This document shows, piece by piece, positions 11,916 to 58,452 of a stretch of 64,000 nucleotides of DNA. Under the pieces are notes generated by a model that was not told where the DNA came from, did not search any database, and saw nothing but the letters and a program-made list of their open reading frames with translations. The DNA comes from Candidatus Oleihabitans oleiphilus (GTDB taxonomy: Bacteria; Atribacterota; Phoenicimicrobiia; Phoenicimicrobiales; Stramentimicrobiaceae). Every line of letters starts with the position of its first letter. The first letter of the stretch is position 1. The translations under genes and the position numbers were made by a program. Location: positions 27,147 to 91,146 of the forward strand of contig JAGPKD010000001.1 of NCBI GenBank assembly GCA_018054125.1. The letters are read 5' to 3'.

Positions 11916-12398
11916 ATGAGTAAAAAAAGTAAGCAATCAAATGAAATTGCCTCTGAAATAGATAAGTTTTTTCTTCAGGCAACTGAAATGCTATGGCAAC
12001 ATGTTACCCAATGTTATGGAAGCACTAAAGGTAATGAGAAAAAATCTTTAACTATTACGGAGCATTTTATTATTGAATTTTTAGGGGAAGAATCTTTTGC
12101 TTCTATGAGCAGGCTTTCTCAAGTAATTCATGTTGCCCCTACTACCATGACCAGTATTGTAGACCGTTTGATAAAGCGTGGTCTTTTAGAAAGACATCGT
12201 GCCAAGCAGGATCGCAGAAAGGTTTTGGTCAGTCTATCAGAAAAAGGCAAACAACTCTATGAGATTCATTACCAGGAATCACTCAAACTCTATTCCTATT
12301 ATTTAAATAAATTCCCGGATAAAGGAAAGCAGTTTCGTCAAAATATCAATGAGCTTAGAAAAAATATTGATTATCTCAAGGGGAAGGATTCCCCTTGA
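11916..12398 (+). CDS. MarR-family transcriptional regulator. The C-terminal codons and stop are encoded by a family B hairpin repeat.
   Basis: Winged-HTH MarR core (SMSRLSQVIHVAPTTMTSIVDRLIKRGLLERHRAKQDRRKVLVSLSEKG). Confidence 0.7.
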   Translation: MSKKSKQSNEIASEIDKFFLQATEMLWQHVTQCYGSTKGNEKKSLTITEHFIIEFLGEESFASMSRLSQVIHVAPTTMTSIVDRLIKRGLLERHRAKQDRRKVLVSLSEKGKQLYEIHYQESLKLYSYYLNKFPDKGKQFRQNINELRKNIDYLKGKDSP

Positions 12399-12404
12399 AT
12401 ATTG
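12376..12404 (+). repeat. family B hairpin (caaggggaaggattccccttg), forming the 3' end of the MarR ORF
   Basis: 9-bp perfect inverted repeat with a 3-4 nt loop. Confidence 0.8.
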
Positions 12405-12486
12405 GAATTGCCAAGCAATTTCGATATTCTTAAATATACTAAGATATGATATTATAGATAGCTATTAAATAGAACAATAGCTATTC

Positions 12487-12540
12487 TATCACCCTCACCC
12501 TCTCCCCTCAAGGGAGAGGAGAGAGGAGAGGGTGATAAAT
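12487..12540. repeat. family C long palindrome (tatcaccctc...cccctcaagggagagg...gagggtgata)
   Basis: A ~50-bp near-perfect palindrome. Confidence 0.8.
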
Positions 12541-12551
12541 ATAGTACCATA

Positions 12552-12605
12552 TTCCTCTCCCTTAGAAGGGAGAGGAAAGGTGAGGGTGATAAATATTACC
12601 TTAAG
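12552..12605. repeat. family C unit (cctctcccttagaagggagagg plus aaggtgagggtgataaatattaccttaag)
   Basis: Also found at 16147, 28949, 40873 and 44687. Confidence 0.8.
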
Positions 12606-12622
12606 CTTAATTCCAGGGGAAA

Positions 12623-12815
12623 CCTCCTGATGACAAAATTGTATATTGTATTACGTATAACGTATACCGTTAAAATTAGTTGTTGGTCGTTAGTATCTGG
12701 TATTTAGTTTGCCTATTACTTATTACCGGTTACTTATTACTGAATTGGCTCCTCGCAATGACAAAAATCGTATACCGTTAAAATACAGTCGTTAGTCGGA
12801 AGTTATTTCAGGGAG
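12623..12815 (+). repeat. family A element, copy A2, upstream of the P-type ATPase
   Basis: Over 90% identical to A1 across ~190 bp. Confidence 0.8.
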
Positions 12816-13017
12816 TTTCAGGAGAAACACCCTGTCCCTGCGGGACACCCCTCTAAAGAGAGGAAGGATTCTAAGATAAACAACTAAGGACAAAATGTCA
12901 TTACCAGTCCTACCCCCTAAACTAATGTTTAGAGGCAGGGCGTGGCATACCATTATTGCTCTTATCTTTGGTCTAAAAACTGAGAACTGATAACTGAAAA
13001 CCATCTTGATTTTAATT

Positions 13018-13063
13018 GAGGGGTTTCAGGGGATACTTCCCCTGAATTCCCCTGAATATCTTG
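13018..13063 (+). repeat. family B hairpin (ttcaggggatacttcccctgaa plus duplicated tail)
   Basis: Perfect 9-bp stem. The ATPase start lies 100 nt downstream. Confidence 0.8.
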
Positions 13064-13163
13064 TAGCTTAATAGCTAAATGATGGCACTGCTATTTATTT
13101 AGCCCAACCTACTATTATTATAAGTATAAGTATCTATTGGGCAGATTATTAAGGAGAAAAAAC

Positions 13164-15905
<2,742 letters not shown>

Positions 15906-15971
15906 TGTTGACTATTAAGAATTATTCCAGTGCTAATCATCTATTTATACCGGGAATATGATATACTAATA

Positions 15972-16001
15972 TTATCGGAATTGCTGTGAAATTCCGATAG
16001 T
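15972..16001. repeat. family D palindrome after the P-type ATPase gene
   Basis: ttatcggaattgctgtgaaattccgatag. Confidence 0.7.
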
Positions 16002-16042
16002 AGAACATAGATTTTTTAAAATGATTAACTAACAATACATTC

Positions 16043-16103
16043 TATCACCCTCACCCTCACCCTCTCCCCTCGAGGGAGAGGTGAGAAGAGAGGGTGATAA
16101 ATA
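16043..16103. repeat. family C long palindrome
   Basis: tatcaccctcaccctcaccctctcccctcgagggagaggtgagaagagagggtgata. Confidence 0.8.
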
Positions 16104-16146
16104 TTCTTTTAGAAAAGCCTTCCAGTAAGTGGGTAACATTCCCTCA

Positions 16147-16200
16147 TTCCTCTCCCTTAGAAGGGAGAGGAAAGGTGAGGGTGATAACTATTACCTTAAG
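16147..16200. repeat. family C unit
   Basis: cctctcccttagaagggagaggaaaggtgagggtgataactattaccttaag. Confidence 0.8.
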
Positions 16201-16206
16201 GTTATT

Positions 16207-16236
16207 TGAGGAGTTTCAGGGGATACCTCCCCTGAT
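16207..16236 (+). repeat. family B hairpin
   Basis: ttcaggggatacctcccctga. Confidence 0.8.
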
Positions 16237-16343
16237 TAAATTATGTAAATAATTTAATGAATTTCTGATTTATACAAACTAAGGTCTTTATTTTTTAATT
16301 AGAATTTACTATATACGTAATACATAATACGGTATACTAATTT

Positions 16344-16380
16344 GAGGGGTTTCAGGGGATACCTCCCCTGAATATCTTGC
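16344..16380 (+). repeat. family B hairpin with conserved gaggggttt lead and aatatcttg tail
   Basis: gaggggtttcaggggatacctcccctgaatatcttg. Confidence 0.8.
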
Positions 16381-16410
16381 AGTATCGGAATTTCAATAAT
16401 TTAGATACTG
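16381..16410. repeat. family D palindrome (right arm degenerate)
   Basis: agtatcggaatttcaataatttagatact. Confidence 0.6.
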
Positions 16411-16459
16411 CAAGATAATATTAAGTATTATTTTTTCAATAAGGAACAATATATTCTGA

Positions 16460-16509
16460 CCCCCTCACCCTAACCCTCTCCCTCGAGGCGAGAGGAGAAG
16501 AAGAGGAAG
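16460..16509. repeat. family C unit (degenerate)
   Basis: ccccctcaccctaaccctctccctcgaggcgagaggagaag. Confidence 0.6.
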
Positions 16510-16582
16510 TAAGATATTTTTTCTTTATTTCTTAACTGTATTTTACTATATACTCAATACTTTATACTCAATACTATTCTTT

Positions 16583-16622
16583 AAGGGGTTCTCAAGGGGA
16601 AGGATTCCCCTTGAATATCTTG
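16583..16622 (+). repeat. family B hairpin, 30 nt upstream of the helicase start codon
   Basis: aaggggttctcaaggggaaggattccccttgaatatcttg. Confidence 0.8.
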
Positions 16623-16651
16623 TTTTAATTTTATTTTAAGGGAGTGACAGC

Positions 16652-18940
16652 ATGGGTTGTGATGTTAAGGAAATTATTCAGGAATTAGAGAATGATTACA
16701 CCATTCGTCCTTATTTAACGGCATTAGAGCATCTACCAGCACAGGAAGCCCGTTTAGCTGATTTTCCTGATTGGTTGGATAAAGCATTGGTTAATCAATT
16801 AAAACAAGATGGTATTACCAGTCTCTATACTCATCAAGCCAGTGCCCTGAAGGCAGTTAATGATGGTCAGAACATAGTGGTAGTTACCCCTACTGCCTCG
16901 GGCAAAACTCTCTGTTACAATTTACCAGTTTTAGATAAAATTATGAAGGAGCCGGAAAGCCGAGCACTTTATCTTTTTCCCACCAAAGCCCTTTCTCAGG
17001 ATCAGTTAAGAGAACTTTACCGTCTGATAGAGGCATTAGATAAACCAATAAATACTTTCACTTATGATGGAGATACCCCGGTCTCAGCACGTTCTGCTAT
17101 CCGCAACCAGGGTCATATTATAGTTACCAATCCGGATATGTTACATACTGGAATATTGCCCCATCATACCAAGTGGTATAGATTATTTCAGAATTTAAAA
17201 TATGTGGTCATGGATGAAATTCATATTTATCGTGGTGTATTCGGAAGTCATATTGCTAATGTCCTACGCCGACTAAGGCGGATTTGTGAATTTTATGGGG
17301 CAAAACCGCAGTTTATCTGTTGTTCTGCTACTATTGCCAATCCTCTGGAATTGGCAGAAAAGATCACAGAGGAGAAATTCACCTTAATTAATAATAATGG
17401 TGCACCCAGCGGGGAGAAGTATTTTCTGTTCTACAATCCGCCGGTGGTAAACAGACCACTGGGTATTCGTAAAAGCCTGATTAAAGAGACCGCTCGGCTG
17501 GTGAGTAAATTTTTAAATCACGATATCCAAACCATTGTTTTTGCTCGCAGTCGCCTGACCACTGAACTATTAACCAGTTATCTCAAGGATTATTTAACCA
17601 AAATTGGGCAGGACCGGGATTTAGTTAGAGGGTATCGCGGAGGTTATCTACCCAATTTACGTCGAGAAATTGAAAAAGGACTCAAAGAAGGACTTATAAA
17701 AGGGGTAATCAGCACCAATGCCCTGGAATTAGGGGTGGATATCGGGCAGCTGGATGCCTGTTTTATTGCTGGTTATCCAGGCACCATTGCCAGTACCTGG
17801 CAACAGGCTGGTAGAGCTGGTAGACGTACTCATTCCTCAGTTGCTGTTCTGGTGGCTTCCAGTATTCCCCTGGATCAATACATTATCAATTCCCCTGATT
17901 ACTTTTTTAAAGAGACACCGGAGAACGCCGTAATTGATGCCAACAATTTAAGTATTTTAATCAGTCACATCAAATGCGCTGCTTTTGAACTTCCTTTTCG
18001 AGATGGCGAAAAATTTGGTTCAGAAGAGCTGGAAGAAATATTACAATTTCTGGAGGAAAAAGGTTTCATTCATTTCACCCAGCATAAATGGCACTGGATG
18101 AGTGAGGCTTATCCTGCTGATGAAATCAGTTTACGCAGTGCTTCTCCTGAAAATTTTGCTATTATTGATTTAGAAAAAGGTGAAAACAAGGTTATCGGAG
18201 AGATAGATCGGGAAAGTGCTCCCACTACCATCTACGAAGGTGCCATTTATATTCATGAAGGTGAACAATATACTATTACCAAACTGGATTATGATGATTA
18301 TAAGGCTTATGCCAAAAAGGTAGATGTTAACTATTACACTGATGCCCAGGTGGAAAGTCATATCAAGGTTCTGGATGTCTTTGAGGGAAAAGAGGAAGAA
18401 AATATTAAACACCAGTATGGGGAGATAGCTATTACTACTATCTCCACCAGGTATAAAAAGGTAAAATTCTATACCCATGAAAATCTGGGTTATGGGAAAA
18501 TTAATTTACCGGCCGAAGATATGCATACCACTGCTTACTGGCTGATTCTCTCAGAGGCATTTTCAAATCTGGCGGGAGGGAAGATGTCTTCTGGATTTAC
18601 CTTTGATTTAGGGGGAGGTTTATTAGCCCTCTCTAATATCATGGTTAATGTCACTCCCTTATTTATTATGTGTGACCCTAAAGATATCAGGGCGGTAGCT
18701 CAAGTCCGTTCTCCTTTTACTGATTTACCAACCCTTTTTATTTATGATAATTATCCCGGGGGAGTGGGTTTTAGTGAGAAAATTTTCGAGTTTCGGGATA
18801 AAATTTTGAGGGCTGCTCGAGATTTGATTGAAAATTGTGGTTGTGAGGAAGGTTGTCCCTCCTGTGTTGGCCCTATTAATCAGGTAGGAAATAACGGTAA
18901 ACAGAGTGCCCTTTTTATTCTGAAGGAGGCAATTCACTGA
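16652..18940 (+). CDS. DEXH-box helicase with a C-terminal DUF1998 four-Cys domain (MrfA/YprA-like)
   Basis: Walker A (TPTASGKT), DEIH box and helicase C motifs are present. The C-terminus carries ENCGCEEGCPSCVGP. Size and architecture match B. subtilis MrfA. Confidence 0.8.
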   Translation: MGCDVKEIIQELENDYTIRPYLTALEHLPAQEARLADFPDWLDKALVNQLKQDGITSLYTHQASALKAVNDGQNIVVVTPTASGKTLCYNLPVLDKIMKEPESRALYLFPTKALSQDQLRELYRLIEALDKPINTFTYDGDTPVSARSAIRNQGHIIVTNPDMLHTGILPHHTKWYRLFQNLKYVVMDEIHIYRGVFGSHIANVLRRLRRICEFYGAKPQFICCSATIANPLELAEKITEEKFTLINNNGAPSGEKYFLFYNPPVVNRPLGIRKSLIKETARLVSKFLNHDIQTIVFARSRLTTELLTSYLKDYLTKIGQDRDLVRGYRGGYLPNLRREIEKGLKEGLIKGVISTNALELGVDIGQLDACFIAGYPGTIASTWQQAGRAGRRTHSSVAVLVASSIPLDQYIINSPDYFFKETPENAVIDANNLSILISHIKCAAFELPFRDGEKFGSEELEEILQFLEEKGFIHFTQHKWHWMSEAYPADEISLRSASPENFAIIDLEKGENKVIGEIDRESAPTTIYEGAIYIHEGEQYTITKLDYDDYKAYAKKVDVNYYTDAQVESHIKVLDVFEGKEEENIKHQYGEIAITTISTRYKKVKFYTHENLGYGKINLPAEDMHTTAYWLILSEAFSNLAGGKMSSGFTFDLGGGLLALSNIMVNVTPLFIMCDPKDIRAVAQVRSPFTDLPTLFIYDNYPGGVGFSEKIFEFRDKILRAARDLIENCGCEEGCPSCVGPINQVGNNGKQSALFILKEAIH

Positions 18941-18942
18941 CT

Positions 18943-43900: not shown

Positions 43901-44211
43901 GATATTTCCTGCAGAGCAGCCATTTCACCTACCAAAGTCTTACCTGAAGAGCTGGGAGAGACAACTAAAAGATTTTCTGGCTTTTCTCGGGATAGGGGAG
44001 TTGCTTCATATAGATTAGCTTCATATAGATTAGAAAAAAAATTAGGATGAGAAGAGCGGAGAAGATTAAACTGGCGTACTGCCTTTTCTTGCACTGGCAG
44101 AAGGAAGTCAGAGTAATGCTCCTTCCAGACCTTAATAATATAATGGGGAATACCAAAGTATTCCAGTTGCTCCATCTTCATATTTTCCAGCATTGTTACT
44201 AAATACCTCAA
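40918..44211 (-). CDS. Ski2/Hel308-like SF2 DNA helicase (1097 aa) with an N/K-rich low-complexity linker and a C-terminal OmpR/PhoB-type winged-helix DNA-binding domain
   Basis: Hel308-like N-terminus (LLPVQEKAV...LLVVSPSSSGKTL), DEIQ box and motif VI (MGGRAGR). The C-terminal trans_reg_C-like segment is GYQLILFLAQNKGKVIPYEQLIDTLWPDDEDATYHRLWYHLGKLRKSM. Confidence 0.75.
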   Translation of the reverse strand: MRYLVTMLENMKMEQLEYFGIPHYIIKVWKEHYSDFLLPVQEKAVRQFNLLRSSHPNFFSNLYEANLYEATPLSREKPENLLVVSPSSSGKTLVGEMAALQEISFHNKVIYLVPLRILAEEKYQHFVHLYRSLGLKIKLSSRDHRHDDQDIRQGNFHIAILVYEKFYYFLLQYPQCLHNVSLIVADEIQLINDSQRGPRLESNFNYLKANYPAIRIIALSALTEHILALATWLDAKLLWSSYRPVELRKGIVREGIYHYVEHNSKITGKEFFFPPEDVQECNLASYLKATLQFLIEQQESNLIFFSTKKEVRLWSSWLASQFTLNPAQRAMEQMLIIEDSTSKEELINLLQKGIAYHCADLSWPERHIIEEAVRIGELKIVCATGTLAMGVNLPVNNVILTGQKIVSGQKSDKHNRYDRYMTNYYQSMLTFSEVENMGGRAGRLNPACSFGRIIFLAPSLIELTAYQKLYFPDYSKDGETWLPCYFYPALQQQQEKQKEKPIRHYVKDVPISENTLNEDQTSTPYTKKDIAALTNVTTVSPGPALLEIWKERPIIVQKDILTFLLYRIALDCDSFQDICQLLKTGNDTKKQTFWHHQFSQTYSEAELLAYLQQLESEQLITIQEGKYCQLTEMGRLVTSKGISFPTYLHFLKWIKESQKENSSELEILFLIATSSDGEEFFTDYPGRESRVIKNKKSLTHKWKEFLRLRMLNLIFEQQEEDKLIFQNNLNINNINSNPSELKEAPSKNELKKYLALKNTLLMYDWITGRELKEIEQDYGLLGGAIQKMGEGFSWLADALAALAIGVGWREDRAGDLEKIQQLSARLIAGVEPAGLPLAKLHIPGLSRGYLQRLVQEGYQDEQCLRELSEKQLQPLLPDLLIKKIKEWLNSSSYSKSNKNNINSNKNNKIHRNKLNKSNLLSDYKHNQNPEAQLNKNFPLPLKSEIKGETKGEIKNEIKAVITINPHRPDQILFLGKEIAVNKIGYQLILFLAQNKGKVIPYEQLIDTLWPDDEDATYHRLWYHLGKLRKSMQKIMQEQDKNNHNSGLSDLADLSDNYLKEKLLRVIPGRGLMLAETVSVEIPTVRGNSPETPELPLR
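40933..40962 (+). repeat. family B hairpin overlapping the 3' end of the large helicase ORF
   Basis: ttcaggggtttcaggggaatttcccctga. Confidence 0.7.
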
Positions 44212-44270: not shown

Positions 44271-44322
44271 TTCCTCTCCCTCGAAGGGAGAGGGTTAGTG
44301 TGAGGGTGATATAATATTACCA
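44271..44322. repeat. family C unit immediately 5' of the large helicase gene
   Basis: cctctccctcgaagggagagggttagtgtgagggtgatataatattacc. Confidence 0.8.
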
Positions 44323-44401
44323 TTTCTTAATAAAAGTAAACATATGTTTGCTTATTATAAACTATTTAAATAAAAAAATCAAAAAAATTTTTAAAAACCT
44401 G

Positions 44402-44545
44402 TTGACAATATCTTTTTTCATGTTAAAATAGAAAAAGTTTGAAAATCGAAAAAGCGAACCAACCAACCAACAAATAACTTTTTCATTTTTAGACCTCCTA
44501 ACTAAAGAAAATGCCACCCCAAAAGGGTGGCTTTTTCTTTTTCGT
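44402..44545 (+). ncRNA. candidate small RNA: sigma70-like promoter (ttgaca ... tgttaaaat) followed ~90 nt later by an intrinsic terminator
   Basis: -35 ttgaca at 44402 and an extended -10 tgttaaaat. Terminator gccacccc-aaaag-ggtggc plus tttttcttttt at 44513-44545. No ORF is present. Confidence 0.25.
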
Positions 44546-44620: not shown

Positions 44621-44686
44621 CCCCAGCATCCTGACCAGCATTATTTGCTTTCTGATTTATTGCCTTTATTTATTCCCATCTCTCTA

Positions 44687-44727
44687 ATCCTCTCCCTTAG
44701 AAGGGAGAGGTAAGGTGAGGGTGATGA
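44687..44727. repeat. family C unit
   Basis: cctctcccttagaagggagaggtaaggtgagggtgatga. Confidence 0.8.
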
Positions 44728-44763
44728 TGAGGGGTTGCAGGGGAAACCTCCCCTGAATATCTT
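44728..44763 (+). repeat. family B hairpin
   Basis: gaggggttgcaggggaaacctcccctgaatatcttg. Confidence 0.8.
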
Positions 44764-44857
44764 GCTCCTCTTTGAGATATTGATCTTCTTTTTATTGTTA
44801 TTATTAGGTGGTAAAAAAGTAACTACCCCTACTGTAAAAAAGTAGAACAGGGGACGG

Positions 44858-45017
44858 CAGACTGTGTGAAAACTAATTCTGAAAATTACTTGCCTCCACT
44901 TACACCAATTATTAATTTCATAATTGGGAATAGGTATATAAAAATAGGGTAAAATATAACATTATCCTCCACTTCAACATTATATTTTGCCAAAAAGGCG
45001 ACTTTTCACACAGCCTG
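44858..45017. mobile_element. MITE-like 160-bp insertion with ~16-bp terminal inverted repeats inside a family F hairpin repeat
   Basis: TIRs cagactgtgtgaaaa / ttttcacacagcctg, flanked by duplicated gacgg. The intact F unit elsewhere reads gggacggttctctg without the insert. Confidence 0.5.
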
Positions 45018-45130
45018 ACGGTTCTCTGTTTCATTAAAATAGAATACCTGAGGCAGAGAACCGTCAGAGGTAGAGAAAAGAGATAGGGCAAAGAAAAGGG
45101 AAGAGGCTACTTTTCTTATTGACAGGATTT

Positions 45131-45290
45131 ATGCGGGTATAAGTGGATGAGATTGCCACGCCCTGCTTTCAGCAGGGCTCACAATGACCACCCCCTCTTT
45201 TGTCACTGCGAGGAGCGAAGCGACGAAGCAGTCTCCTTCAATTACACCAGCCGCATTAATTTAATATTCATTTCGCGCGGAGGAAAAAAG
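45131..45290 (-). repeat. inverted, rearranged family A left-arm fragment
   Basis: gtcactgcgaggagcgaagcgacgaagcagtctcc is the reverse complement of the A left arm. It is shared with 48486..48612. Confidence 0.5.
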
Positions 45291-45439: not shown

Positions 45440-45886
45440 TTAGCGGGAGGATTTGTGCAAATCTTTGGTAAGTTCCTGAGCCTTTTTAAAAAAATCTCTA
45501 GCCGCTTTTAAAGCGAAACTAGCTCCTTCTTCCGACCATCGGTCATAATAATCGGCGTCCTCTCTTAGTCTTTTACTTTTTCCCAGAGCTTCTATTAAGC
45601 TGCCTGGGAGCAACCTGGTCTCTACATAAAGAGCCCGTATAGCCACAATAAGACAATGGTGGCTGTGCTCTCGGTAGTTCTTGGCAAACAAAAGGGCTCT
45701 GGCGGAATGGAACATAGAGTAATAGGCCTGGATAGTGGCCCATTTGTAATCTTTATCCTCAAAAGTTTTTTCCGCCCTTTCCAGGTCCCGCTGAGCTGTC
45801 CCCAGGGTTTTGGACAAGAGGGCTTTCCCCCGCGGGAATTCCCTTATTTTATTTTTCTTTAAACATTGCTCAAATTCTGGATTCAT
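45440..45886 (-). CDS. HEPN-domain protein (toxin of a HEPN/MNT module)
   Basis: R-x4-H motif (YREHSHH) in a ~148-aa helical protein. It overlaps the upstream nucleotidyltransferase gene. Confidence 0.6.
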   Translation of the reverse strand: MNPEFEQCLKKNKIREFPRGKALLSKTLGTAQRDLERAEKTFEDKDYKWATIQAYYSMFHSARALLFAKNYREHSHHCLIVAIRALYVETRLLPGSLIEALGKSKRLREDADYYDRWSEEGASFALKAARDFFKKAQELTKDLHKSSR

Positions 45887-46427
45887 CTTTAGACTCCCAT
45901 AGGGTTATGCCGTGTTCTATCTCTTCAAAAAATATTGATTCTTCCTTTTCCATCTGGATAAACTGGGTCGAGTTGCGAATAATTGGTTGAAGTTTTTTTC
46001 TGAGGTCGCTTTTCTCTATCTTCTCTTCAATGGCCTTTGGACTATCGGCTAGGATAAAAAGGTCTATATCACTACTGTCTATATCTTCCCCCCGGGCACA
46101 ACTGCCAAACAGGACTATTTTCTTAGAGAGTGGTTTCAATTTATTTACCAGGGGCTGTAAGAGTACAGTAGTCTTGAGGACCTTCAATTGCTTAATAACG
46201 GGATTGTGATAATCAACCGAATAAAGATAGATCTTGGCCTTCTTTTCCCGCAGGACGAGCTTTTCTTTAGCAAGTTTACGAAGAGAGAGATTAACTCCCG
46301 CTCGGCTAATTCTAGTGGCTTTTTCGATTTCCTTAGCCAGAAATTGCTTACCCGGGCTTTGGATAAGAAAGTTTAAGACCTTCTGGGCATTAGTTGATAT
46401 AAGGCTATTGTTCATATAAGGCTCCAT
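45870..46427 (-). CDS. minimal nucleotidyltransferase (MNT) with an N-terminal wHTH, antitoxin-like partner of HEPN
   Basis: GSCARGEDIDSSDIDLFI nucleotidyltransferase signature with an N-terminal winged-helix. Confidence 0.7.
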   Translation of the reverse strand: MEPYMNNSLISTNAQKVLNFLIQSPGKQFLAKEIEKATRISRAGVNLSLRKLAKEKLVLREKKAKIYLYSVDYHNPVIKQLKVLKTTVLLQPLVNKLKPLSKKIVLFGSCARGEDIDSSDIDLFILADSPKAIEEKIEKSDLRKKLQPIIRNSTQFIQMEKEESIFFEEIEHGITLWESKDESRI

Positions 46428-46519: not shown

Positions 46520-46596
46520 TAGAACAGTATAGAACAGGGGATGATTCTCTGTTTCATAAAATAAAATATCTGAAGTAGGGAACTGTCAGAAGTAGA
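46520..46596. repeat. family F hairpin (gacggttctctg-loop-cagagaaccgtc type), copy in duplicated segment 1
   Basis: aacaggggatgattctctgtttcataaaataaaatatctgaagtagggaactgtcagaagtagagaaaag. Confidence 0.7.
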
Positions 46597-46632
46597 GAAA
46601 AGATGGTGGGGCTCACCATGACTAACCTTACT

Positions 46633-46694
46633 CCCCCCTCACCCTAACCCTCTCCCTCGAAGGGAGAGGGGAGGGAGAGGGTGATAAATTATTT
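46633..46694. repeat. family C unit within duplicated segment copy 1
   Basis: cccctcaccctaaccctctccctcgaagggagaggggagggagagggtgataaattatt. Confidence 0.8.
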
Positions 46695-46762
46695 TCTCAT
46701 GATCTCTAGGGCACTGTATCCAAATTCTACAAAGAGCAAAACAGGAAGGAAGACGGATTAAT

Positions 46763-46972
46763 CTAATCTTGTTTCCTTTGCTCTTTTATCTTTTTTACGA
46801 TACTTTCTACCTCTTCTCCTTGCAGAATAAATTCTCTTTCTTTAGTATAGTCTCCATATCCCAGTTCATATTGCTCGAAGAAACGGATCATACCTACCGG
46901 TCCTAATTCTTTGGTTATAGCTGCTATGCCCAGTTTTCTTATAGCTGTGGGGGTTAATTTTTTAGTATTCAT
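46763..46972 (-). CDS. hypothetical 69-aa protein, copy 1 of an exactly duplicated gene
   Basis: ORF identical at protein level to 49694..49903. Family not recognised. Confidence 0.4.
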   Translation of the reverse strand: MNTKKLTPTAIRKLGIAAITKELGPVGMIRFFEQYELGYGDYTKEREFILQGEEVESIVKKIKEQRKQD

Positions 46973-47199
46973 TCGCTATCACCTCCCATACCCATTCCAT
47001 AGGAGAATTTACTTTTACCTTCAGCATACCTCTAAATAAATTTTATACTTCTACTCTTTCCATCACAATACCTGTCACGTTTATATTTCAAAAAATTGAC
47101 TTATAATATATCTTAGTCTATAATATAAACAACATACCTGCCACGCCTCTCAACGATGCGCACCCTGGCGGGTTTTTCTTTTTAATAAGAGTAGGTTAT

Positions 47200-48078
47200 A
47201 TGAAATATTCCAAGCCACCGACAACATTCCAGGAACAAATCGATATTCTAATAAAACGTGGTTTAAATGTTGAAGATCCTGAAAAGGCTTTATTAAATAT
47301 AAGTATAATAAACTATTATAGATTAAGTTCTTATTTCCCTCCCTTTCAACTCAATGATCATCAGTTTAAAGAGAATACTTCAATTGATAGCATTTTTGAA
47401 TTATATGATTTTGATAAAAAATTAAGAGCTCTTATCTTTAGAGCCCTGGAAAATGTTGAGATTACTTTACGTACCAAAATAGCCTATTATTTCTCTCATA
47501 CCTATAGTCCATCTGCTTACTGTGATCCTTGTAATTTCTCTCCAGGTTTTAATCATGCAGATTGGCTTGCTAAACTAGAAGAAAGTATAAATAGAACTCA
47601 TGAGGATTATGTAAAAGAATTTTTTAAGGAATATGATGAAGAAAAAGTTCTTCCTATTTGGATAGTTATTGAGATAATATCATTTGGCCAGCTTTCCGTT
47701 ATGCTTAGAGGCTTGAAAAGATCTGACCGAAAACGTATTGCAGAAGATTGTTTTGGAATTGATGAAGCAAGACTTTATTCCTGGGTGCATACCTTAGTAT
47801 ATATTAGAAATTTATGTGCTCATTACAGCCGTATATGGAATAGAACATTAGCCATAAAGCCTATGATTACAAAAAGATTGCCTGAATGGAAAGATATTTC
47901 AAATCATAAAATATTCTGTGTTTTTCTGATATTTAAAAAGCTTATGATTATACCAGAACAGTGGGAAGCCTGGAGAAATGATTTAATTAGCCTTTTAGAA
48001 GAATATAAAAATATTAATACAAAAATGATGGGCTTCCCGGATGATTGGCAAGAAAGACTTAATAGCCATAAAATATAG
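47200..48078 (+). CDS. Abi_2 (AbiD/AbiF-like) abortive-infection protein
   Basis: N-terminus FQEQIDILIKRGLNVEDPEKALLNISIINYYRLSSYFPPF matches the Abi_2 family signature. Confidence 0.75.
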   Translation: MKYSKPPTTFQEQIDILIKRGLNVEDPEKALLNISIINYYRLSSYFPPFQLNDHQFKENTSIDSIFELYDFDKKLRALIFRALENVEITLRTKIAYYFSHTYSPSAYCDPCNFSPGFNHADWLAKLEESINRTHEDYVKEFFKEYDEEKVLPIWIVIEIISFGQLSVMLRGLKRSDRKRIAEDCFGIDEARLYSWVHTLVYIRNLCAHYSRIWNRTLAIKPMITKRLPEWKDISNHKIFCVFLIFKKLMIIPEQWEAWRNDLISLLEEYKNINTKMMGFPDDWQERLNSHKI

Positions 48079-48713: not shown

Positions 48714-48947
48714 CTATTCTCTCCTCCTACTTGCATTGAGTACGGTGATTCCTATGATTTCTCCTTTCTCGTATCTGATTATGAGATCATCATCCGTGAG
48801 CTCGGAATCATCTGCATGGCTTGGCTTCTTGAAATTGAGGTATAAAACATCGGCTTCTTTATCGTAAGAGGTCCAAATCCTTGAATACGGCACTTCCAAT
48901 AATTCAGGCACGAGATCTAATACCTTTTTTACCTCTATGGTTCCCAT
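48714..48947 (-). CDS. DUF2283-like small protein (putative antitoxin)
   Basis: 77 aa with the VLYLNF...DDLIIRYEKGEIIGITVL pattern. It overlaps the upstream DUF4258-like gene. Confidence 0.5.
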   Translation of the reverse strand: MGTIEVKKVLDLVPELLEVPYSRIWTSYDKEADVLYLNFKKPSHADDSELTDDDLIIRYEKGEIIGITVLNASRRRE

Positions 48948-49240
48948 ATCTTTCGCCTCCTTTCCAGTTTTTTCCTCCGCTTCGTTAAGAATGCGGTAAT
49001 TACAAATCCATCCTCTTTACCCAATTCTCTATAGATCACTACCATATATTTATCTTTTTCTATTTCCCTCACTGCTATGCACTCCCCAGCTTTGCCCGCA
49101 TAAATTGCCTCTGGCTCCTCCACCGCTTCGAGAACATCGAAATAATATCCTGCCATCTCCGAATGCTCTTCTGTAATAGGTAACCATCTCTCTTCGGTCA
49201 ATCTGATGGGAACATTGTTTTTGGACCTGATCACATCCAT
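48935..49240 (-). CDS. DUF4258-like small protein (putative toxin)
   Basis: 101 aa with the YFDVLEAVEEPEAIYAGKAGECIAVREI pattern, paired with DUF2283. Confidence 0.5.
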   Translation of the reverse strand: MDVIRSKNNVPIRLTEERWLPITEEHSEMAGYYFDVLEAVEEPEAIYAGKAGECIAVREIEKDKYMVVIYRELGKEDGFVITAFLTKRRKKLERRRKIWEP

Positions 49241-49437: not shown

Positions 49438-49527
49438 ATAGAACATAGAACAGTAGAACAGGGGACGGTTCTCTGTTTCATTAAAGTAGAATACCTGAAG
49501 CAGAGAACTGTCAGAGGTATAGAAAAG
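49438..49527. repeat. family F hairpin, copy in duplicated segment 2, preceded by tagaacatagaacag tandem units
   Basis: aacaggggacggttctctgtttcattaaagtagaatacctgaagcagagaactgtcagaggtatagaaaag. Confidence 0.7.
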
Positions 49528-49567
49528 ATGGCAGGGCTCACCATGACTAACCTCATTTCCCCCTCAC

Positions 49568-49634
49568 CCTCACCCTAACCCTCTCCCTCGAGGGGAGAGG
49601 GGAGGGAGAGGGTGATAAATTATTTTCTCATAAT
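49568..49634. repeat. family C unit within duplicated segment copy 2
   Basis: ccctcaccctcaccctaaccctctccctcgaggggagaggggagggagagggtgataaattatt. Confidence 0.8.
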
Positions 49635-49693
49635 CTCTAAGGCACTGTCTCCAAAGTCTCCAAAGAGCAAAGCAGGAAGGGAGACGGATTAAT

Positions 49694-49903
49694 CTAATCT
49701 TGTTTCCTTTGCTCTTTTATCTTTTTTACGATACTTTCTACCTCTTCTCCTTGCAGAATAAATTCTCTTTCTTTAGTATAGTCTCCATATCCCAGTTCAT
49801 ACTGCTCAAAGAAACGGATCATACCTACCGGTCCTAATTCTTTGGTTATAGCTGCTATGCCCAGTTTTCTTATAGCTGTTGGGGTTAATTTTTTAGTATT
49901 CAT
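49694..49903 (-). CDS. hypothetical 69-aa protein, copy 2 of the duplicated gene
   Basis: Identical to 46763..46972 and embedded in a ~480-bp duplicated segment. Confidence 0.4.
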   Translation of the reverse strand: MNTKKLTPTAIRKLGIAAITKELGPVGMIRFFEQYELGYGDYTKEREFILQGEEVESIVKKIKEQRKQD

Positions 49904-50050: not shown

Positions 50051-50356
50051 CTAACTGGCTTTGGAATAAATCTTTACTTCTGAATCAAGTTTATTTCCAA
50101 GTTTATCTGATTGTATTTCTAGGTCGTAGTGTGCTTGTAAATTAAGCCAGAATTTAGGCGACATCTGGAAATATCGACCCAATCTTAAGGCGGTATCAGC
50201 ACTAATTGCTCTTTTGCCCTGCACGATTTCATTAATACGGCGGGGTGGCACATTGATATCTTTAGCCAGCCGGTACTGGGAAATATGCATGGTATCCAAA
50301 AACTCTTCTTTTAATATTATCCCGGGATGTAGGGGTTCTATTTTTTTATTAGGCAT
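50051..50356 (-). CDS. higA: HigA-family antitoxin (XRE HTH)
   Basis: HPGIILKEEFL...ISQYRLAKDINVPPRRINEIVQGKRAISADTALRLGRYF is the canonical HigA HTH. Confidence 0.75.
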   Translation of the reverse strand: MPNKKIEPLHPGIILKEEFLDTMHISQYRLAKDINVPPRRINEIVQGKRAISADTALRLGRYFQMSPKFWLNLQAHYDLEIQSDKLGNKLDSEVKIYSKAS

Positions 50357-50369
50357 CTCTAATCACCTC

Positions 50370-50666
50370 CTAATGGTAATCAACAATTTCCACATCATAA
50401 GCGTCGTGAGCCTCCCATCTGAAGCAGATCCTCCACTTTTGGTTTATACGTGTGCTGTATTGTCCTTTTCGTTCCCCTCTCAAAATTTCCAAATGATTTG
50501 ACGGTGGAATCTTTAAAGATTGTAAATCAGGAGCTGCATCAATCATCCACAATTTCTTCATCGCCTTTCTCTGTATATCATCGGGAAATTTGAGAGAATA
50601 TTGGCGATGAAATATCTTCCTAGTTTCCTTACCCTTGAATGATTTAATCATGCTTATTATTAACAT
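50370..50666 (-). CDS. higB: HigB-family toxin (RelE/ParE superfamily)
   Basis: MIKSFKGKETRKIF...LKIPPSNHLEILRGERKGQYSTRINQKWRICFRW is the HigB killer-protein signature. It lies upstream of higA. Confidence 0.7.
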   Translation of the reverse strand: MLIISMIKSFKGKETRKIFHRQYSLKFPDDIQRKAMKKLWMIDAAPDLQSLKIPPSNHLEILRGERKGQYSTRINQKWRICFRWEAHDAYDVEIVDYH

Positions 50667-50725: not shown

Positions 50726-50793
50726 GATAGAACATGGAAAAAAGGGGGACGGTTCTCTGTTTCATTAAAATAAAATATCTGAAGCAGGGAACC
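50726..50793. repeat. family F hairpin upstream of higBA
   Basis: ggggacggttctctgtttcattaaaataaaatatctgaagcagggaaccgtt. Confidence 0.7.
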
Positions 50794-50794
50794 G

Positions 50795-50858
50795 TTACTC
50801 CCCACTTACCCTAACCCTCTCCCTCGAGGGGAGAGGGGATTAGAATTGGGAGAGGAGG
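50795..50858. repeat. family C unit upstream of higBA
   Basis: cttaccctaaccctctccctcgaggggagaggggattagaattgggagagg. Confidence 0.7.
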
Positions 50859-51661: not shown

Positions 51662-51750
51662 AGATAAAGAGCTGGAGGTTAATTTAGAAGTTATCAAGGG
51701 AAACTTCCTCTGAATATTTTGCTGAATAAAGAATAAAAATAGGAGGGAAG

Positions 51751-55638: not shown

Positions 55639-56652
55639 ATGAAAAAGAAGTTACCATTAGGAAAATTAGATTTTTCCCATCTTGAACAACTACTAAAAAA
55701 ATATTCCAGCCAGCCTGATTCCAGAGTGATAATTGGTCCCCGACTGGGGGAAGATGCAGCAGTTATTGACTATCCGGATCGCTACCTGGTGGCCAAAACA
55801 GATCCTGTTACCTTTGCTACCGAGCAGATTGGCTGGTATGCGGTGCAAGTTAATGCCAATGATATTGCTACCAGAGGAGCGGTACCAAAGTGGTTTCAAG
55901 CCACTATCCTCTTACCAGAAAACAAAACAACGGAAGAACTTGTGGATAATATCTTTTCTCAAATACACCAGGCCTGTACGGAATTGAACATAACCGTAAT
56001 TGGAGGTCATACTGAGATCAGTTATCATTTAGAAAGACCTATTATTGTTGGCGGTATGCTAGGTGAGGTGGAAAAGAATAAGCTGGTTTCTACCTCAGGA
56101 GCAAGGCCTGGCGATCTCCTTATCTTAACCAAAGGGATAGTCATCGAAGGAACCGCTATCATAGCCAGAGAGAAGAAGGAAGAATTAGAAAAAAGAGGGT
56201 ATCAGAAAAGCTTTATCCAGAAATGTCAGGACTTTATTTATAATCCCGGTCTTTCTGTAGTAAAGGAGGCTTTGCTGGCAAATAAGAGAGAGGTTCATGC
56301 CATGCATGATCCCACAGAAGGAGGTTTAGCCTGTGCCCTTTATGAGATTGCTCTGGCTTCCCGGGTTGGTCTTTTGGTAAAGAGAGAAAAAATACCCATC
56401 TTAAAAGAGGCTCAGCTACTTTGTAAGGAATACCATCTAGATCCTTTAAAGACTATTACTTCAGGAACTCTGCTCATTGCTACCTCACCAAACAATGCTA
56501 AGGAAATTACGACTGTTTTAAAAGAACATAGAATAAACTCTGCTGTGATAGGAGAAATAAAAGAAGAAAGTTTTGGCTTGAAAATAATAACCGATGGGAT
56601 TTTAGAAGACTTACCCTTTTCTGCCCAAGACGAGATTACCAAAATTTTTTGA
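55639..56652 (+). CDS. AIR synthase-related (PurM-like superfamily) protein
   Basis: PurM N-domain pattern GEDAAVIDYP...TDPVT...NDIATRGAVP. Confidence 0.55.
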   Translation: MKKKLPLGKLDFSHLEQLLKKYSSQPDSRVIIGPRLGEDAAVIDYPDRYLVAKTDPVTFATEQIGWYAVQVNANDIATRGAVPKWFQATILLPENKTTEELVDNIFSQIHQACTELNITVIGGHTEISYHLERPIIVGGMLGEVEKNKLVSTSGARPGDLLILTKGIVIEGTAIIAREKKEELEKRGYQKSFIQKCQDFIYNPGLSVVKEALLANKREVHAMHDPTEGGLACALYEIALASRVGLLVKREKIPILKEAQLLCKEYHLDPLKTITSGTLLIATSPNNAKEITTVLKEHRINSAVIGEIKEESFGLKIITDGILEDLPFSAQDEITKIF

Positions 56653-56743
56653 AAAAATTTTAATAATTTTGAGGAGGATAGTTTATAGTTGAAATTAATG
56701 GTAAAATTTATCAGTAATACAGAGTTAACGAGCAATATATTTT

Positions 56744-56778
56744 ATAGTATCGGAATTTCGAAAAAATTCTGATACTAT
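56744..56778. repeat. family D palindrome after the PurM-like gene
   Basis: atagtatcggaatttcgaaaaaattctgatactat. Confidence 0.8.
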
Positions 56779-56812
56779 AAAATACTCTTTTTAGATAAGA
56801 AACAATATATTT

Positions 56813-56844
56813 AGGTATCGGCATTTCAATAATTCCGATACCTA
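56813..56844. repeat. family D palindrome (near-perfect 14-bp arms)
   Basis: aggtatcggcatttcaataattccgataccta. Confidence 0.8.
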
Positions 56845-56983
56845 AATATAAAGGATTGATTTGTTATAAAAAATTTAGCAAAACAAGATATGCATTTCTT
56901 GAAAAGGAATTTTTCTTTATTTTTTAACTAACATTTAAACTAAATACTATATACTAAATACTAGATACTCAATACTGATAATT

Positions 56984-57020
56984 GAGGGGTTTCAGGGGAT
57001 ACCTCCCCTGAATATCTTGT
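56984..57020 (+). repeat. family B hairpin, 34 nt upstream of the MFS gene start
   Basis: gaggggtttcaggggatacctcccctgaatatcttg. Confidence 0.8.
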
Positions 57021-57053
57021 TTATACTATTCCTGAAATAAGATATCAATAGAA

Positions 57054-58322
57054 ATGAACATCAGTAACAATAAAGATAGAGAAGAAAAGTATTTTAATTG
57101 GCAGGTATTATTAGTTATATCACTTTCATCTATAGCTATGGGTATTTATCGGGATGGTGTTTCTTCTCTTTTCCCTTTTTTGCAAGCTGAATTCGAATTA
57201 AGCAGGGTTCAGGTAGCCTTTTATAGCACTTGCCTTTATCTTACCTCTTCAATTTTCAGCATATTTGGCGGAAGATTGGTGGACCTCAAAGGCACAAAAT
57301 GGGGGATGATTTCCGGGATTATTTTGGTAGGATTTTTTCTTATTCTCCATTCTATGGCATCTAATTTTACTTTTTTACTCATATTAGCTGCTTTTTCTGG
57401 TGTGGGAATGAGTATCAATCCTTCTGCGGCTAACAAAGGCATTACAGAATGGTTTTCTCCAAAATGGAGAAGCACGGCTACTGGAATTTGGAGTACTTCT
57501 TTCCCCATCGGTGGAGCTCTGGCGGCCAGTCTCTTACCTGTTTTGGGGATCTTGACTGGTTGGCGTAAATCTATTCTCATTCCTGGTTTTTTCATTTTAT
57601 TCTGTGGATTACTTATTTTTTTACTCTATAAGGATAGAGAAAAAGCACAGAATAACCTTAAAGAAAAAAGTGAACAGGAAATATCTTTTTGGAGGGGGTT
57701 TCGTGATTTAATTAAAAATAGAAATTTATTAACTATTTCAGTTTTTGGATTTTTTCTGGGGTCTACAGAGGGGGCAATTCTTACTCATTTTACCTTATTT
57801 TTATATCTAGATTATAGTTTGGTAGAGACTATAGCAGGTGCTGGATTTGCATTTGTTCAATTCGGAAGCATCTTTGGAAGGTTATTTTGGGGCGCGTTTT
57901 GCGATAAATTTCTGAATGCTGACCGTAAGAAAACTTTTTTAATTTTGAGTTTTATATTTCTTCTCACAACCTTATTCTTTGGTCTATTTTTAAAGAGAAT
58001 TATTTTCTCTCTTCCAATTTTGTTTTCTTTAGCATTTTTAACTGGATTTTCTGGCAGAGGTTGGGACGGCATTTTTTTTCCATCTGTTTCAGAAATGGTG
58101 AGAGAAGAACAAGTTGGAGCTGCTATAGGTATGTCTTTGTTGTTTACTCGAACTGGTATACTGGTATCACCTCTAATATTTGGTTTTATTGCTGATTTTA
58201 GAGGAGCGTACGATCTTAGCTGGATTCTGTTGGGTTTAATGTTATTTTTTAGTTCTATTATCTTTTACCTCAGAAGTTTTAATAAAGATGGGAATTTCAA
58301 TAATTCCTATACCTCAAGATAA
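57054..58322 (+). CDS. MFS transporter. The C-terminal codons run through a family D palindrome.
   Basis: 12 predicted TM segments and an MFS motif-A-like region (GGRLVDLKGTKW). Confidence 0.7.
   Translation: MNISNNKDREEKYFNWQVLLVISLSSIAMGIYRDGVSSLFPFLQAEFELSRVQVAFYSTCLYLTSSIFSIFGGRLVDLKGTKWGMISGIILVGFFLILHSMASNFTFLLILAAFSGVGMSINPSAANKGITEWFSPKWRSTATGIWSTSFPIGGALAASLLPVLGILTGWRKSILIPGFFILFCGLLIFLLYKDREKAQNNLKEKSEQEISFWRGFRDLIKNRNLLTISVFGFFLGSTEGAILTHFTLFLYLDYSLVETIAGAGFAFVQFGSIFGRLFWGAFCDKFLNADRKKTFLILSFIFLLTTLFFGLFLKRIIFSLPILFSLAFLTGFSGRGWDGIFFPSVSEMVREEQVGAAIGMSLLFTRTGILVSPLIFGFIADFRGAYDLSWILLGLMLFFSSIIFYLRSFNKDGNFNNSYTSR
58288..58316. repeat. family D palindrome (degenerate) inside the MFS gene 3' end
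   Basis: gatgggaatttcaataattcctatacctc. Confidence 0.6.
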
Positions 58323-58414
58323 GGAATGATTTGTTATAAAAGATTTTGAAAGACAAGAGAAAAGGTAATATATTATTATTACTTAGTGAGTATGATAAGA
58401 TTGATATAGAGATA

Positions 58415-58452
58415 AAGGGGTTCTCAAGGGGAAGTATTCCCCTTGAATATCC
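58415..58452 (+). repeat. family B hairpin, ~30 nt upstream of the proposed ThrC-like start
   Basis: aaggggttctcaaggggaagtattccccttgaatatcc. Confidence 0.8.

Follow-up and report, generated by a model that had tools for sequence, protein, structure and literature searches.

The window analyzed here, 64,000 nt of contig JAGPKD010000001.1 from Candidatus Oleihabitans oleiphilus (Atribacterota), has a short hairpin repeat scattered through its intergenic spacers. On balance, this repeat is probably a lineage-restricted, non-autonomous palindromic module that colonizes and reshuffles gene leaders. Its copies are dispersed, modular in construction, subject to turnover, and patchily distributed among taxa, and they preserve a palindrome and are biased in orientation and position relative to genes. 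Intergenic spacers typical of one Atribacterota lineage contain a broader collection of repeat modules, of which the unit is one; the others include heptamer arrays, other palindromes, and a 69–84-nt form with terminal inverted repeats (TIRs). Small dispersed repeats that are palindromic or resemble MITEs (miniature transposable elements with inverted repeats) form a known class, new for this phylum. Atribacterota are abundant in subsurface and anaerobic habitats and, to our knowledge, are known almost only from metagenome-assembled genomes (MAGs), with their non-coding DNA undescribed. We found no paper on such repeats in Atribacterota.

Copies in the window are 42–47 nt long and consist of a lead, a palindrome, and a tail (table 1). 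The palindrome, 22–23 nt in total, has a perfect 9–10-bp G4/C4 stem and a loop of 3–4 nt. The lead, NAGGGG(T/A)T ([G/C/A]AGGGG[T/A]T in the window), is a partial copy of the 5′ arm, and the conserved tail is ATATCTTG, i.e., (A)TATCTTG. The type A pattern TTCAGGGGA-N4-TCCCCTGAA has seven sites in the window at two or fewer mismatches (shuffled expectation of 0.00) and the type B pattern CAAGGGGAAGGATTCCCCTTG has five (shuffled expectation of 0.01), and the family of two stem and loop types with maintained pairing reported in the original prediction is real. A hairpin scan together with an nhmmer profile built from window copies yielded 13 clear copies, two degenerate copies (12802 and 51678), and one copy split by an insertion. 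Because the palindrome itself matches both strands, strand was read from the asymmetric lead and tail; every window copy is on the + strand, as first noted, which has a chance of ∼1e-4. Of the proposed tail, ATATCTTG alone is conserved, and the adjacent TAGTAT is part of a neighboring palindromic module present at some copies only. Across copies of the window and of the sampled loci, conservation stops sharply outside the lead and tail.

Stems are almost invariant (∼0.02 mismatches per site). Pairing was assessed by structure-anchored counts in Python, since the structures of types A and B fall out of register in MAFFT alignments. The two types are roughly equal in frequency, and two others with the same lead and tail occur: type C, with the stem TCAGGGGGC-GAA-GCCCCCTGA, and type D, a double hairpin ACCCCTCTTAAGAGGGGAA-N3-TTCCCCTTGA. 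Complementarity is retained in all four types while loops vary freely (TACC, TACT, AACC, AACT, ATCT, and a flipped GGTA in type A; GGA, GAA, and GTA in type B). Compensatory changes between stems had been offered as an argument for selection on a functional structure. Pairing is indeed kept, but the changes separate a few subfamilies of near-identical copies and hence represent few events that fit any process requiring a palindrome.

The repeat is abundant within a narrow set of genomes. A pattern scan sampled one genome per species, and the exact-pattern matches listed are almost only from MAGs of Candidatus Atribacteria/Atribacterota, UBA6794 foremost, followed by UBA4082, CG2_30_33_13, and others. 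The window and 76 loci from among the matches listed, ∼0.6 Mb of sampled DNA, contain 187 copies with a profile score of at least 25, nearly all of them intergenic. With 14–16 copies in the 64-kb window and at least 158 in the sampled loci of UBA6794, the density implies hundreds of copies per genome. Window positions 7253–15361 are 92–93% identical to UBA6794 contig_1414 (L052; such labels denote the loci compared) and positions 56789–58288 are 98.9% identical to L069, in which the site of the copy at 56978 is conserved. The nearest homologues of the helicase encoded in the window are labeled Atribacterota or Caldatribacteriota. UBA4082 carries identical hairpins though its proteins are mostly 55–66% identical to those of UBA6794. 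An Rfam scan of the window at gathering thresholds had no match to the hairpin and found only an abiF RNA elsewhere in the window, and a permissive scan of 11600–16700 gave only sub-threshold chance matches, to other modules. The pattern had 0 matches in viral contigs, on which ground a phage or provirus origin was dismissed. An origin from the small dispersed repeats (SDRs) or short tandemly repeated repetitive sequences of cyanobacteria (Nostocales), suggested by the heptamer arrays and G-rich palindromes, was dismissed as well; the pattern matches listed are almost only Atribacteria MAGs.

Some assignments within this distribution are unusual. MAGs binned as Aerophobetes (45% GC) and Clostridia have related hairpin forms (L018, 4391–4429; L061, 3995–4092), next to which lies a common repeat of ∼150 nt that is 89% identical between them. 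Either the repeat set has spread horizontally or contigs were mis-binned. Similarly, L038 and L063, assigned to UBA4082 and UBA6794, share genes at 98–100% protein identity while other orthologues are mostly 55–66% identical, which suggests recent transfer or a binning error.

The unit is the shared 3′ end of at least four different upstream composites. NATACTN heptamer arrays that end in ..ACTGATAAT-TGAGGGG are upstream of 22% of copies (40 of 185), with a fixed junction ..ACTGATAATTGAGGGG, and ACGTATA arrays followed by AGTTGCTAGTCGGAAGTTATTT are upstream of 10%. A G-rich module, CCTCTCCCTTAGAAGGGAGAGG..GGTGAGGGTGAT, forms another upstream context. In 28% of copies, a left arm, CAAGATAGCATTTTCTTGAATTGTATTTTCTTT, extends the repeat to a 69–74-nt unit that recurs head-to-tail, has the terminal inverted repeats CAAGATA...TATCTTG, and serves as one scaffold for hairpins of type A or type B. 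An 84-nt form in CG2_30_33_13 has a perfect 15-bp TIR, CAAGATATTCAAGGG...CCCTTGAATATCTTG (L013, L043, and L075), and the L018 hairpin forms a symmetric palindrome whose arms measure 18 bp. The flanks of the TIR forms are conserved repeat sequence themselves, so no target duplication is readable. Copies within a spacer are head-to-tail, and opposite-strand copies are less than 1 kb apart only in L067, at a divergent spacer. Spacing between copies is irregular (∼75–85, 128–147, and more nt) and the intervening DNA is composed of repeated modules.

Several of these other modules were recorded in their own right. A second abundant family of palindromes, asymmetric in G and C between strands, consists of CCTCTCCCTTAGAAGGGAGAGG followed by AAGGTGAGGGTGATAA and also takes the form TCACCCTCACCCTCTCCC..GGGAGAGG..GGGTGA. 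Its copies in the window (12489–12600, 16051–16191, 28932–28987, 40857–40912, 44273–44320, 44670–44725, 46630–46695, and 49565–49626) are all on the + strand and often directly 5′ of the hairpin studied here. The module GAGATTGC...TCGCTTCGCTCCTCGCAATGAC occurs in either orientation (28662–28722, 32615–32675, 35673–35733, and 45130–45250) and in L078 and L032; its presence in relatives without the hairpin family implies that it is older or spreads independently. Tandem heptamer arrays are general in these spacers. A composite repeat of ∼180–250 nt (11731–11910, 12641–12820, 32686–32865, and 35737–35916, with two copies 97% identical) combines tandem heptamers (ACGTATA, TTAGTCG/TTGGTCG, and TTACTNA) with an internal duplication.

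Comparisons with relatives show how quickly copies come and go. Homologues of the window helicase were arranged as a ladder of 98%, 87%, 84%, 68%, 65%, and 61% identity and their contigs were compared. The contig with the 98% identical helicase (L077) has 8 copies in 10.9 kb. In contrast, no intact copy is present in the other six helicase loci (61–87% identity; ∼115 kb), in which a single degenerate B-like remnant was found, in L078. The spacers upstream of the same helicase gene in relatives of 61–87% identity are 16–220 nt long and free of repeats, and the hairpin is absent upstream of the helicase, MarR, and ATPase orthologues in L078–L083. Even among carriers, the presence, number, and type of copies vary at orthologous spacers (window, L052, L077, and L034/L032). 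In the four-gene syntenic cluster of L032 and L034, copies are in different spacers. The helicase spacers of the window and L077 are conserved at both ends and have middles drawn from different modules, and the last hairpin, though its position is shared, belongs to type B in the window and to type A in L077. L052 has three copies 5′ of the MarR gene, where the window retains only a remnant of a lead. The interval between the MarR and ATPase genes has one intact hairpin in L052 and in L077, whereas the hairpin in the window is split by a block of ∼430 nt that consists of other modules and ends in a new hairpin; the junctions of the block show microhomology (CCTCC and a duplicated TTCCCCTGAA). 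The copy at 12376, which is intact in L052, is degenerate in L077, and the repeat-free L080 has a different 3′ end of its MarR gene.

We suggest that a DNA-level process requiring the palindrome both multiplies and reshuffles the unit. Most likely, a trans-acting transposase or recombinase would recognize a folded single strand or the inverted ends, and homologous and microhomology recombination between copies would add to the shuffling and may do much of it. A unit inserted in a leader would be transcribed and fold into a stem-loop of −16 to −19 kcal/mol. Any effects on mRNA stability or translation would then be generic or secondarily acquired and not the reason for the presence of each copy.

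Copies are far from random with respect to genes. The following statistics on position and orientation rest on our own calls of open reading frames (ORFs). Between genes in the same direction, 102 copies are in sense and 8 in antisense orientation (p ∼ 1e-21 against 0.5 and p = 0.01 against 0.85), and copies are closer to the downstream start in 83 cases and to the upstream stop in 19. The median distance is 115 nt to the start and 444 nt from the stop, in carrying spacers with a median length of 652 nt. Divergent spacers are favored over convergent spacers (20:5 relative to a background of 28:36; p = 0.002), and in divergent spacers the co-oriented gene is the nearer one for 16 of 20 copies (9 of 13 spacers). 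Six of nine copies that appear to lie inside ORFs are start-proximal sense copies. With starts tested for a Shine–Dalgarno sequence, no stem ends within 20 nt of a start, 28 of 95 end at 20–60 nt, and the remainder are spread to 600 nt, such that distance to the start has a floor and no fixed spacing. Approximately 70% of co-oriented copies are more than 60 nt from a start, up to ∼1 kb. A positional bias toward starts, set beforehand as a test in the original prediction, is therefore present. Degenerate copies have the same orientation bias (39 sense and 5 antisense), indicating that the bias arises no later than insertion and that its maintenance is not confined to intact hairpins.

Five window copies end close to a start codon, which had been taken as evidence of an RNA element near the ribosome-binding site (RBS). 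The reported distance of 24–35 nt to the ATG is reproduced if the tail is counted, and the stems themselves are 33–41 nt away. Pfam upholds the identities given for the five genes, which encode a DEAD/MrfA-type helicase, a PAS-GAF-GGDEF protein, a PAS-GAF-HD-GYP protein, an MFS protein, and a PALP enzyme; genes 3′ of hairpins in the window have no common function.

Several observations weigh against the reading of the repeat as a mobile module. The biases in orientation, start proximity, and position in divergent spacers exceed those of purely selfish random insertion, and they fit an RNA-level role or insertion linked to transcription. An intact hairpin is kept beside the proximal leader at two rearranged loci. 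Among stem mismatches on the sense strand, G·T outnumbers A·C (23:11; p = 0.06), and pairing between lead and tail via G·U is possible in the sense RNA only. No clean pair of filled and empty sites with a target duplication was seen at the orthologous spacers compared, and the rearrangements that were seen resemble recombination or deletion rather than precise transposition. Pfam scans of 20 window ORFs found no transposase or recombinase, the sampled loci have no multi-copy ORF beside the repeats, and a crude regular-expression search for the HUH/Y1 motif in 479 ORFs of the partial genome sample was negative. No autonomous insertion sequence (IS) with matching ends was found in the window or in 83 loci, which sample part of any genome.

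Some of the same observations support a functional element of the 5′ untranslated region (5′-UTR) that acts in cis on the downstream mRNA, the main rival explanation, though one that we regard as unlikely. Such an element could be a stabilizer against 5′-end-dependent decay, a processing site for trimming long leaders, a target of a global RNA-binding protein, or a modulator of translation in which the C-rich 3′ arm or an ACCUCC loop mimics the anti-Shine–Dalgarno sequence. Sense orientation, start proximity with a floor at ∼20 nt, the copies at 20–60 nt, the nearness to co-oriented genes in divergent spacers, the excess of G·T mismatches, and retention at the two rearranged loci all agree with it. 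In addition, the predicted fold is more stable for sense RNA (−18.5 to −18.9 kcal/mol) than for antisense RNA (−15.7 kcal/mol) because the GGGG of the lead pairs with the UCUU of the tail via G·U on the sense strand only, and the degenerate fraction is lower near starts (12% vs. 28%; p = 0.03). However, median profile scores of proximal and distal copies are equal, and the start-proximal copy at 51678 is decayed. The hairpin is not conserved 5′ of orthologous genes: relatives have the same genes without hairpins, syntenic copies are in different spacers, and types A and B are interchanged at one site in L077. Most copies are 100–1000 nt from a start and in arrays of 2–5, the window has two antisense copies and one that provides a stop codon, and the targets are unrelated. 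The proposal of a dedicated, conserved 5′-UTR control element is not supported by these findings.

Evidence from promoters is divided between the two explanations. In L032, a hairpin is located 5′ of a TTGACA-17-TGATAAAAT promoter that is conserved in L034, where it is hairpin-free. Conversely, in the repeat-free L080, the MarR promoter and first leader bases abut the ATG, whereas the window and L052 have repeats in between; located between a conserved promoter and the ATG, the MarR-locus copies are, judging from this arrangement, probably transcribed. A stricter promoter scan often placed a strong site 50–120 nt into the spacer, 5′ of all hairpins, but the pattern is only suggestive because the density of sites per length is similar on both sides of hairpins. 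Promoter-tool counts in these AT-rich spacers equal the expectation from shuffles.

The association with heptamer arrays raises a related explanation, a portable cassette of promoter and 5′ stem-loop, in which the NATACTN array would drive transcription from the G-rich lead and the mRNA of the downstream gene would begin with the hairpin as its 5′-terminal stem-loop; in Neisseria, promoters are supplied by Correia elements in a comparable way. The arrays offer −10-like boxes (TATACT, AATACT, and GATAAT), often with TTTACA 17 nt upstream, and the promoter scan flagged TTTACA-17-TATACT four times within them. Five copies in the window leave room only for a short RBS leader, so transcription must start at or before the hairpin, and Correia elements both carry σ70-like promoters and map mostly just upstream of genes (PMC10969869). 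We nonetheless consider this explanation improbable. Arrays with the fixed junction account for only approximately one-fifth of copies, the others following ACGTATA arrays, G-rich modules, or the AACAAGATA arm; promoter-like matches in the AT-rich spacers are no more common than in shuffles; and the TTATTT or TAATT just before the lead is a poor −10 box.

A repetitive extragenic palindromic (REP) element or REP doublet forming a hairpin (REPIN), moved by a REP-associated tyrosine transposase (RAYT), or a palindrome-associated IS200/IS605 remnant would explain orientation differently. A Y1 (HUH) transposase would recognize the hairpin as folded in single-stranded DNA and place it in the template of the lagging strand, with orientation following the direction of replication and that of genes only indirectly. 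The short, perfect, GC-cored palindrome, high copy number, and asymmetric flanks are as expected, as is the location of all 14 window copies on one strand even beside minus-strand genes (40943 and 44737), and RAYTs cleave single-stranded REP DNA (PMC3733652). Moreover, genes in the sampled loci are uniform in orientation (347 of 411 adjacent pairs are co-oriented), and a replication bias would look like a gene bias. Where local genes run against the majority of their locus, element orientation agrees with the local genes in five cases and with the majority in two, which points away from replication, although discordant cases are too few to decide between replication-linked and gene-linked orientation. 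Replication also does not explain the position bias in divergent spacers. The stem lacks an adjacent GTAG/CGTC tag, copies form head-to-tail arrays and not inverted doublets, their 5′-proximal location and depletion between convergent genes are the opposite of REPs, and the motif search described above gave no HUH/Y1 ORF. We therefore give this mechanism little credence.

The biases could also reflect an undescribed leader-specific system of hairpin and heptamer arrays, for which we see a minor share of the probability. Either insertion would be strand-specific and coupled to transcription, with the displaced non-template strand in active 5′ regions as one conceivable target, or the hairpin would serve throughout the genome as an RNA signal for a global factor of this Atribacterota lineage that binds or processes RNA. 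If so, the 93% sense orientation, start proximity, and hairpin retention would be a matter of mechanism or function and not of tolerance.

Least probable of all, and by our estimate very much so, is that the repeat serves as an operator bound by a dimeric regulator, as an intrinsic terminator, or as an insulator. The perfect inverted repeat speaks for such a role, and the T-rich tail lets two window copies through a loose terminator filter. But perfect arms of 9–10 bp around a 3–4-nt spacer, arrays, rapid turnover, and unrelated targets do not fit an operator, and the binding site of a dimeric regulator mentioned in the original prediction is not borne out. As for termination, copies are a median of 444 nt from upstream stops, and a terminator 20–60 nt from starts would shut off the gene that follows; the tail, UAUCUUG, makes a poor U-tract, and canonical terminators in the window are different (44508–44545). 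Terminator, operator, CRISPR, and integron attC candidates were dismissed on position, spacing, and sequence.

Table 1. Copies of the hairpin repeat in the window. Coordinates are those of the window; distances are from stem to ATG unless otherwise stated.
Coordinates	Strand	Type	Copy position	Description	Support
12376–12410	+	B	12377	TCAAGGGGAAGGATTCCCCTTGA, no G-rich lead; includes stop TGA (12396–12398) and last 7 codons of MarR-family gene 11916–12398	Pattern, hairpin scan, nhmmer, Pfam
12611–12630	+	A		Left half TTCCAGGGGAAACCTCC; cut by ∼430-nt block of other repeat modules	Alignment with L052 and L077 (hairpin intact there)
12802–12832	+	Degenerate	12802	Lead TTTCAGGGAGTT and eroded stem TCAGGAGAAACACCCTG	nhmmer score 11.6
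13012–13066	+	A	13026	Loop TACT, then duplicated 3′ arm TTCCCCTGAA and tail (13048–13066, the right half of the split copy); unit ∼117 nt 5′ of P-type ATPase ATG	Pattern, hairpin scan, nhmmer
16201–16244	+	A	16216	Lead GAGGAG, divergent tail; first of three in 746-nt spacer 5′ of helicase	Pattern, hairpin scan, nhmmer
16338–16384	+	A	16352	After heptamer array; tail runs on into palindrome CTTGCAGTATCGGAATTTCAATAATTTAGATACTGCAAG	Pattern, hairpin scan, nhmmer; RNA fold −18.9 sense, −15.7 antisense (kcal/mol)
16578–16627	+	B	16593	After NATACTN heptamer array; 37 nt 5′ of helicase ATG (16652)	Pattern, hairpin scan, nhmmer; L077 has type A there
28457–28502	+	A	28471	One A·C stem mismatch; in divergent 990-nt spacer, after left arm AACAAGATAG..TTTCTTGAA	Pattern, nhmmer
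32868–32917	+	B	32884	3′ end of ∼250-nt composite module (ACGTATA heptamers ... AGTTGCTAGTCAGAAGTTATTT)	Pattern, nhmmer
32996–33046	+	B	33012	40 nt 5′ of PAS-GAF-GGDEF ATG (33074)	Pattern, nhmmer, Pfam
35911–35958	+	A	35926	Loop ATCT; 33 nt 5′ of HD-GYP ATG (35980)	Pattern, nhmmer, Pfam
40929–40974	+	A	40943	3-nt loop; antisense in last codons of minus-strand helicase-like ORF 40918–44211	Hairpin scan, nhmmer, Pfam
44727–44766	+	A	44737	TGCAGGGGA, loop AACC; flanked by two minus-strand genes, antisense to both	Pattern, nhmmer
51678–51724	+	Degenerate	51678	TATCAAGGGAAACTTCCTCTGAATATTTTG; whole copy ∼27 nt 5′ of ketopantoate-reductase-family gene (51751)	nhmmer score 19.8, Pfam
56978–57023	+	A	56992	After NATACTN array ending ..ACTGATAATTGAGGGG; 41 nt 5′ of MFS ATG (57054)	Pattern, nhmmer, Pfam
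58412–58458	+	B	58425	Loop GTA, tail ATATCCCTG; ∼36 nt 5′ of most likely ATG (58483) of PALP (ThrC-like) gene	Pattern, nhmmer, Pfam

Repeats also add coding sequence. The MarR-family gene ends in ...LKGKDSP-stop, derived from the type B hairpin (12377–12398), and the last codons of the minus-strand ORF 40918–44211 (region 40918–40974) run through the antisense type A hairpin.

Two other features of the window are separate from the hairpin family. A 65-nt hairpin repeat, GACGGTTCTCTG...CAGAGAACCGTC, has four direct copies (45017–45081, 46539–46603, 49464–49528, and 50748–50812) that bound small defense and toxin–antitoxin cassettes. The cassettes include HEPN and nucleotidyltransferase genes (45440–46427); an abiF RNA motif (Rfam RF03085; 50.4 bits relative to a gathering threshold of 37) directly 5′ of an Abi_2 (AbiF/AbiD-like) abortive-infection gene (47137–48078); a PBECR2-like nuclease gene (48935–49240); and genes for a helix-turn-helix (HTH) protein and a HigB-like toxin (50051–50666). 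Two of the 65-nt repeats are within an ∼400-nt direct repeat (46539–46935 and 49464–49866; 97% identical). The layout is cassette-like and may represent a separate mobile or recombination system. The other feature, at 44401–44545 on the + strand between two minus-strand genes, has a promoter-like TTGACA-17-TAAAAT followed ∼110 nt later by a canonical terminator, GCCACCC-AAAA-GGGTGGC and a T run; the predicted transcript has a CCTCC stretch, making the region a candidate small RNA.

The repeat accounts for the long hypervariable spacers of these MAGs and for breaks that their assemblies are likely to have. ORFs can be artificially extended by it and C-termini altered, as in the MarR gene and ORF 40918–44211, and in binning and strain typing it can mark the lineage. 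With its strong sense orientation and 5′ position, it lends itself to asking whether the placement of REP, BOX, and Correia elements reflects the mechanism of insertion, tolerance, or a recruited RNA function.

Compared with the defined classes of short repeats, the unit shares features with several. It has the TIRs (in its 69–84-nt forms) and insertion polymorphism of MITEs and, like REPs, is a short, high-copy, extragenic palindrome, but without their tag, doublets, or 3′ location. A GC hairpin followed by a U-tract after a stop, the mark of intrinsic terminators, is not its arrangement, given the tail UAUCUUG. Neither does it have the regular spacing and unique spacers of CRISPR arrays or, as seen in L078–L083 and L032/L034, the presence at orthologues across species of a conserved leader. 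By the defining features of REPs the unit is not one of them, nor does it belong with terminators, CRISPR arrays, known Rfam RNAs, or conserved leader elements.

Heptamer arrays recall another system. Elhai et al. 2008 (Genome Res 18:1484) reportedly describes cyanobacterial SDRs of less than 50 nt that are nested among tandem heptamer arrays and have no linked transposase. The association with such arrays is likened here by description only, not by sequence, and SDRs are reported only in Nostocaceae (PMC5861425). The likeness to REP and REPIN–RAYT systems is in the 20–40-nt, GC-rich extragenic palindromes with hundreds of copies and lineage-specific types, for which folding in single-stranded DNA or mRNA has been proposed (PMC3116915, PMC3733652). 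In REPs, one stem end bears a conserved tetranucleotide, GTAG or CGTC (PMC3733652), whereas the stem here is flanked by ..GGGGTT and ATATCTTG, and GTAG is in a few copies only, 7–8 nt past the stem and in the neighboring module. Inverted doublets are absent, and no RAYT was found in the partial genome sample. REPs are mostly downstream of genes, between unidirectional and convergent ORFs, in contrast to the 5′-proximal and divergent-favoring location of this unit.

By analogy, the unit appears to work most like Correia elements and pneumococcal mosaic repeats. Multiplication, recombination, and nesting with other modules into long mosaic leaders are also seen for REP/BIME, BOX/RUP/SPRITE, and Correia elements of other bacteria (PMC3116915, PMC3733652, PMC10969869). 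Correia elements, the MITEs of Neisseria, are likewise small, non-autonomous, high-copy elements with inverted repeats, located 5′ of genes and variable among strains, and the 84-nt form here has comparable 15-bp TIRs. Their transcription yields structured RNA that can change expression (PMC10969869). Set against elements with a TA-type target duplication, promoter, integration host factor (IHF) site, and RNase III cleavage, the unit here has a much smaller core of ∼45 nt that is essentially one hairpin, forms head-to-tail arrays, belongs to a different phylum, and lacks sequence similarity. The BOX, RUP, and SPRITE elements of pneumococci cluster and insert into one another (PMC10969869), and with the bacterial interspersed mosaic elements (BIMEs) of Escherichia coli they show the same modular organization, in which short repeats cluster or nest into long mosaic spacers (PMC10969869, PMC3733652). 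Their modules are unrelated to those of Atribacterota, in which the palindromes are direct rather than alternating and co-oriented with the downstream gene.

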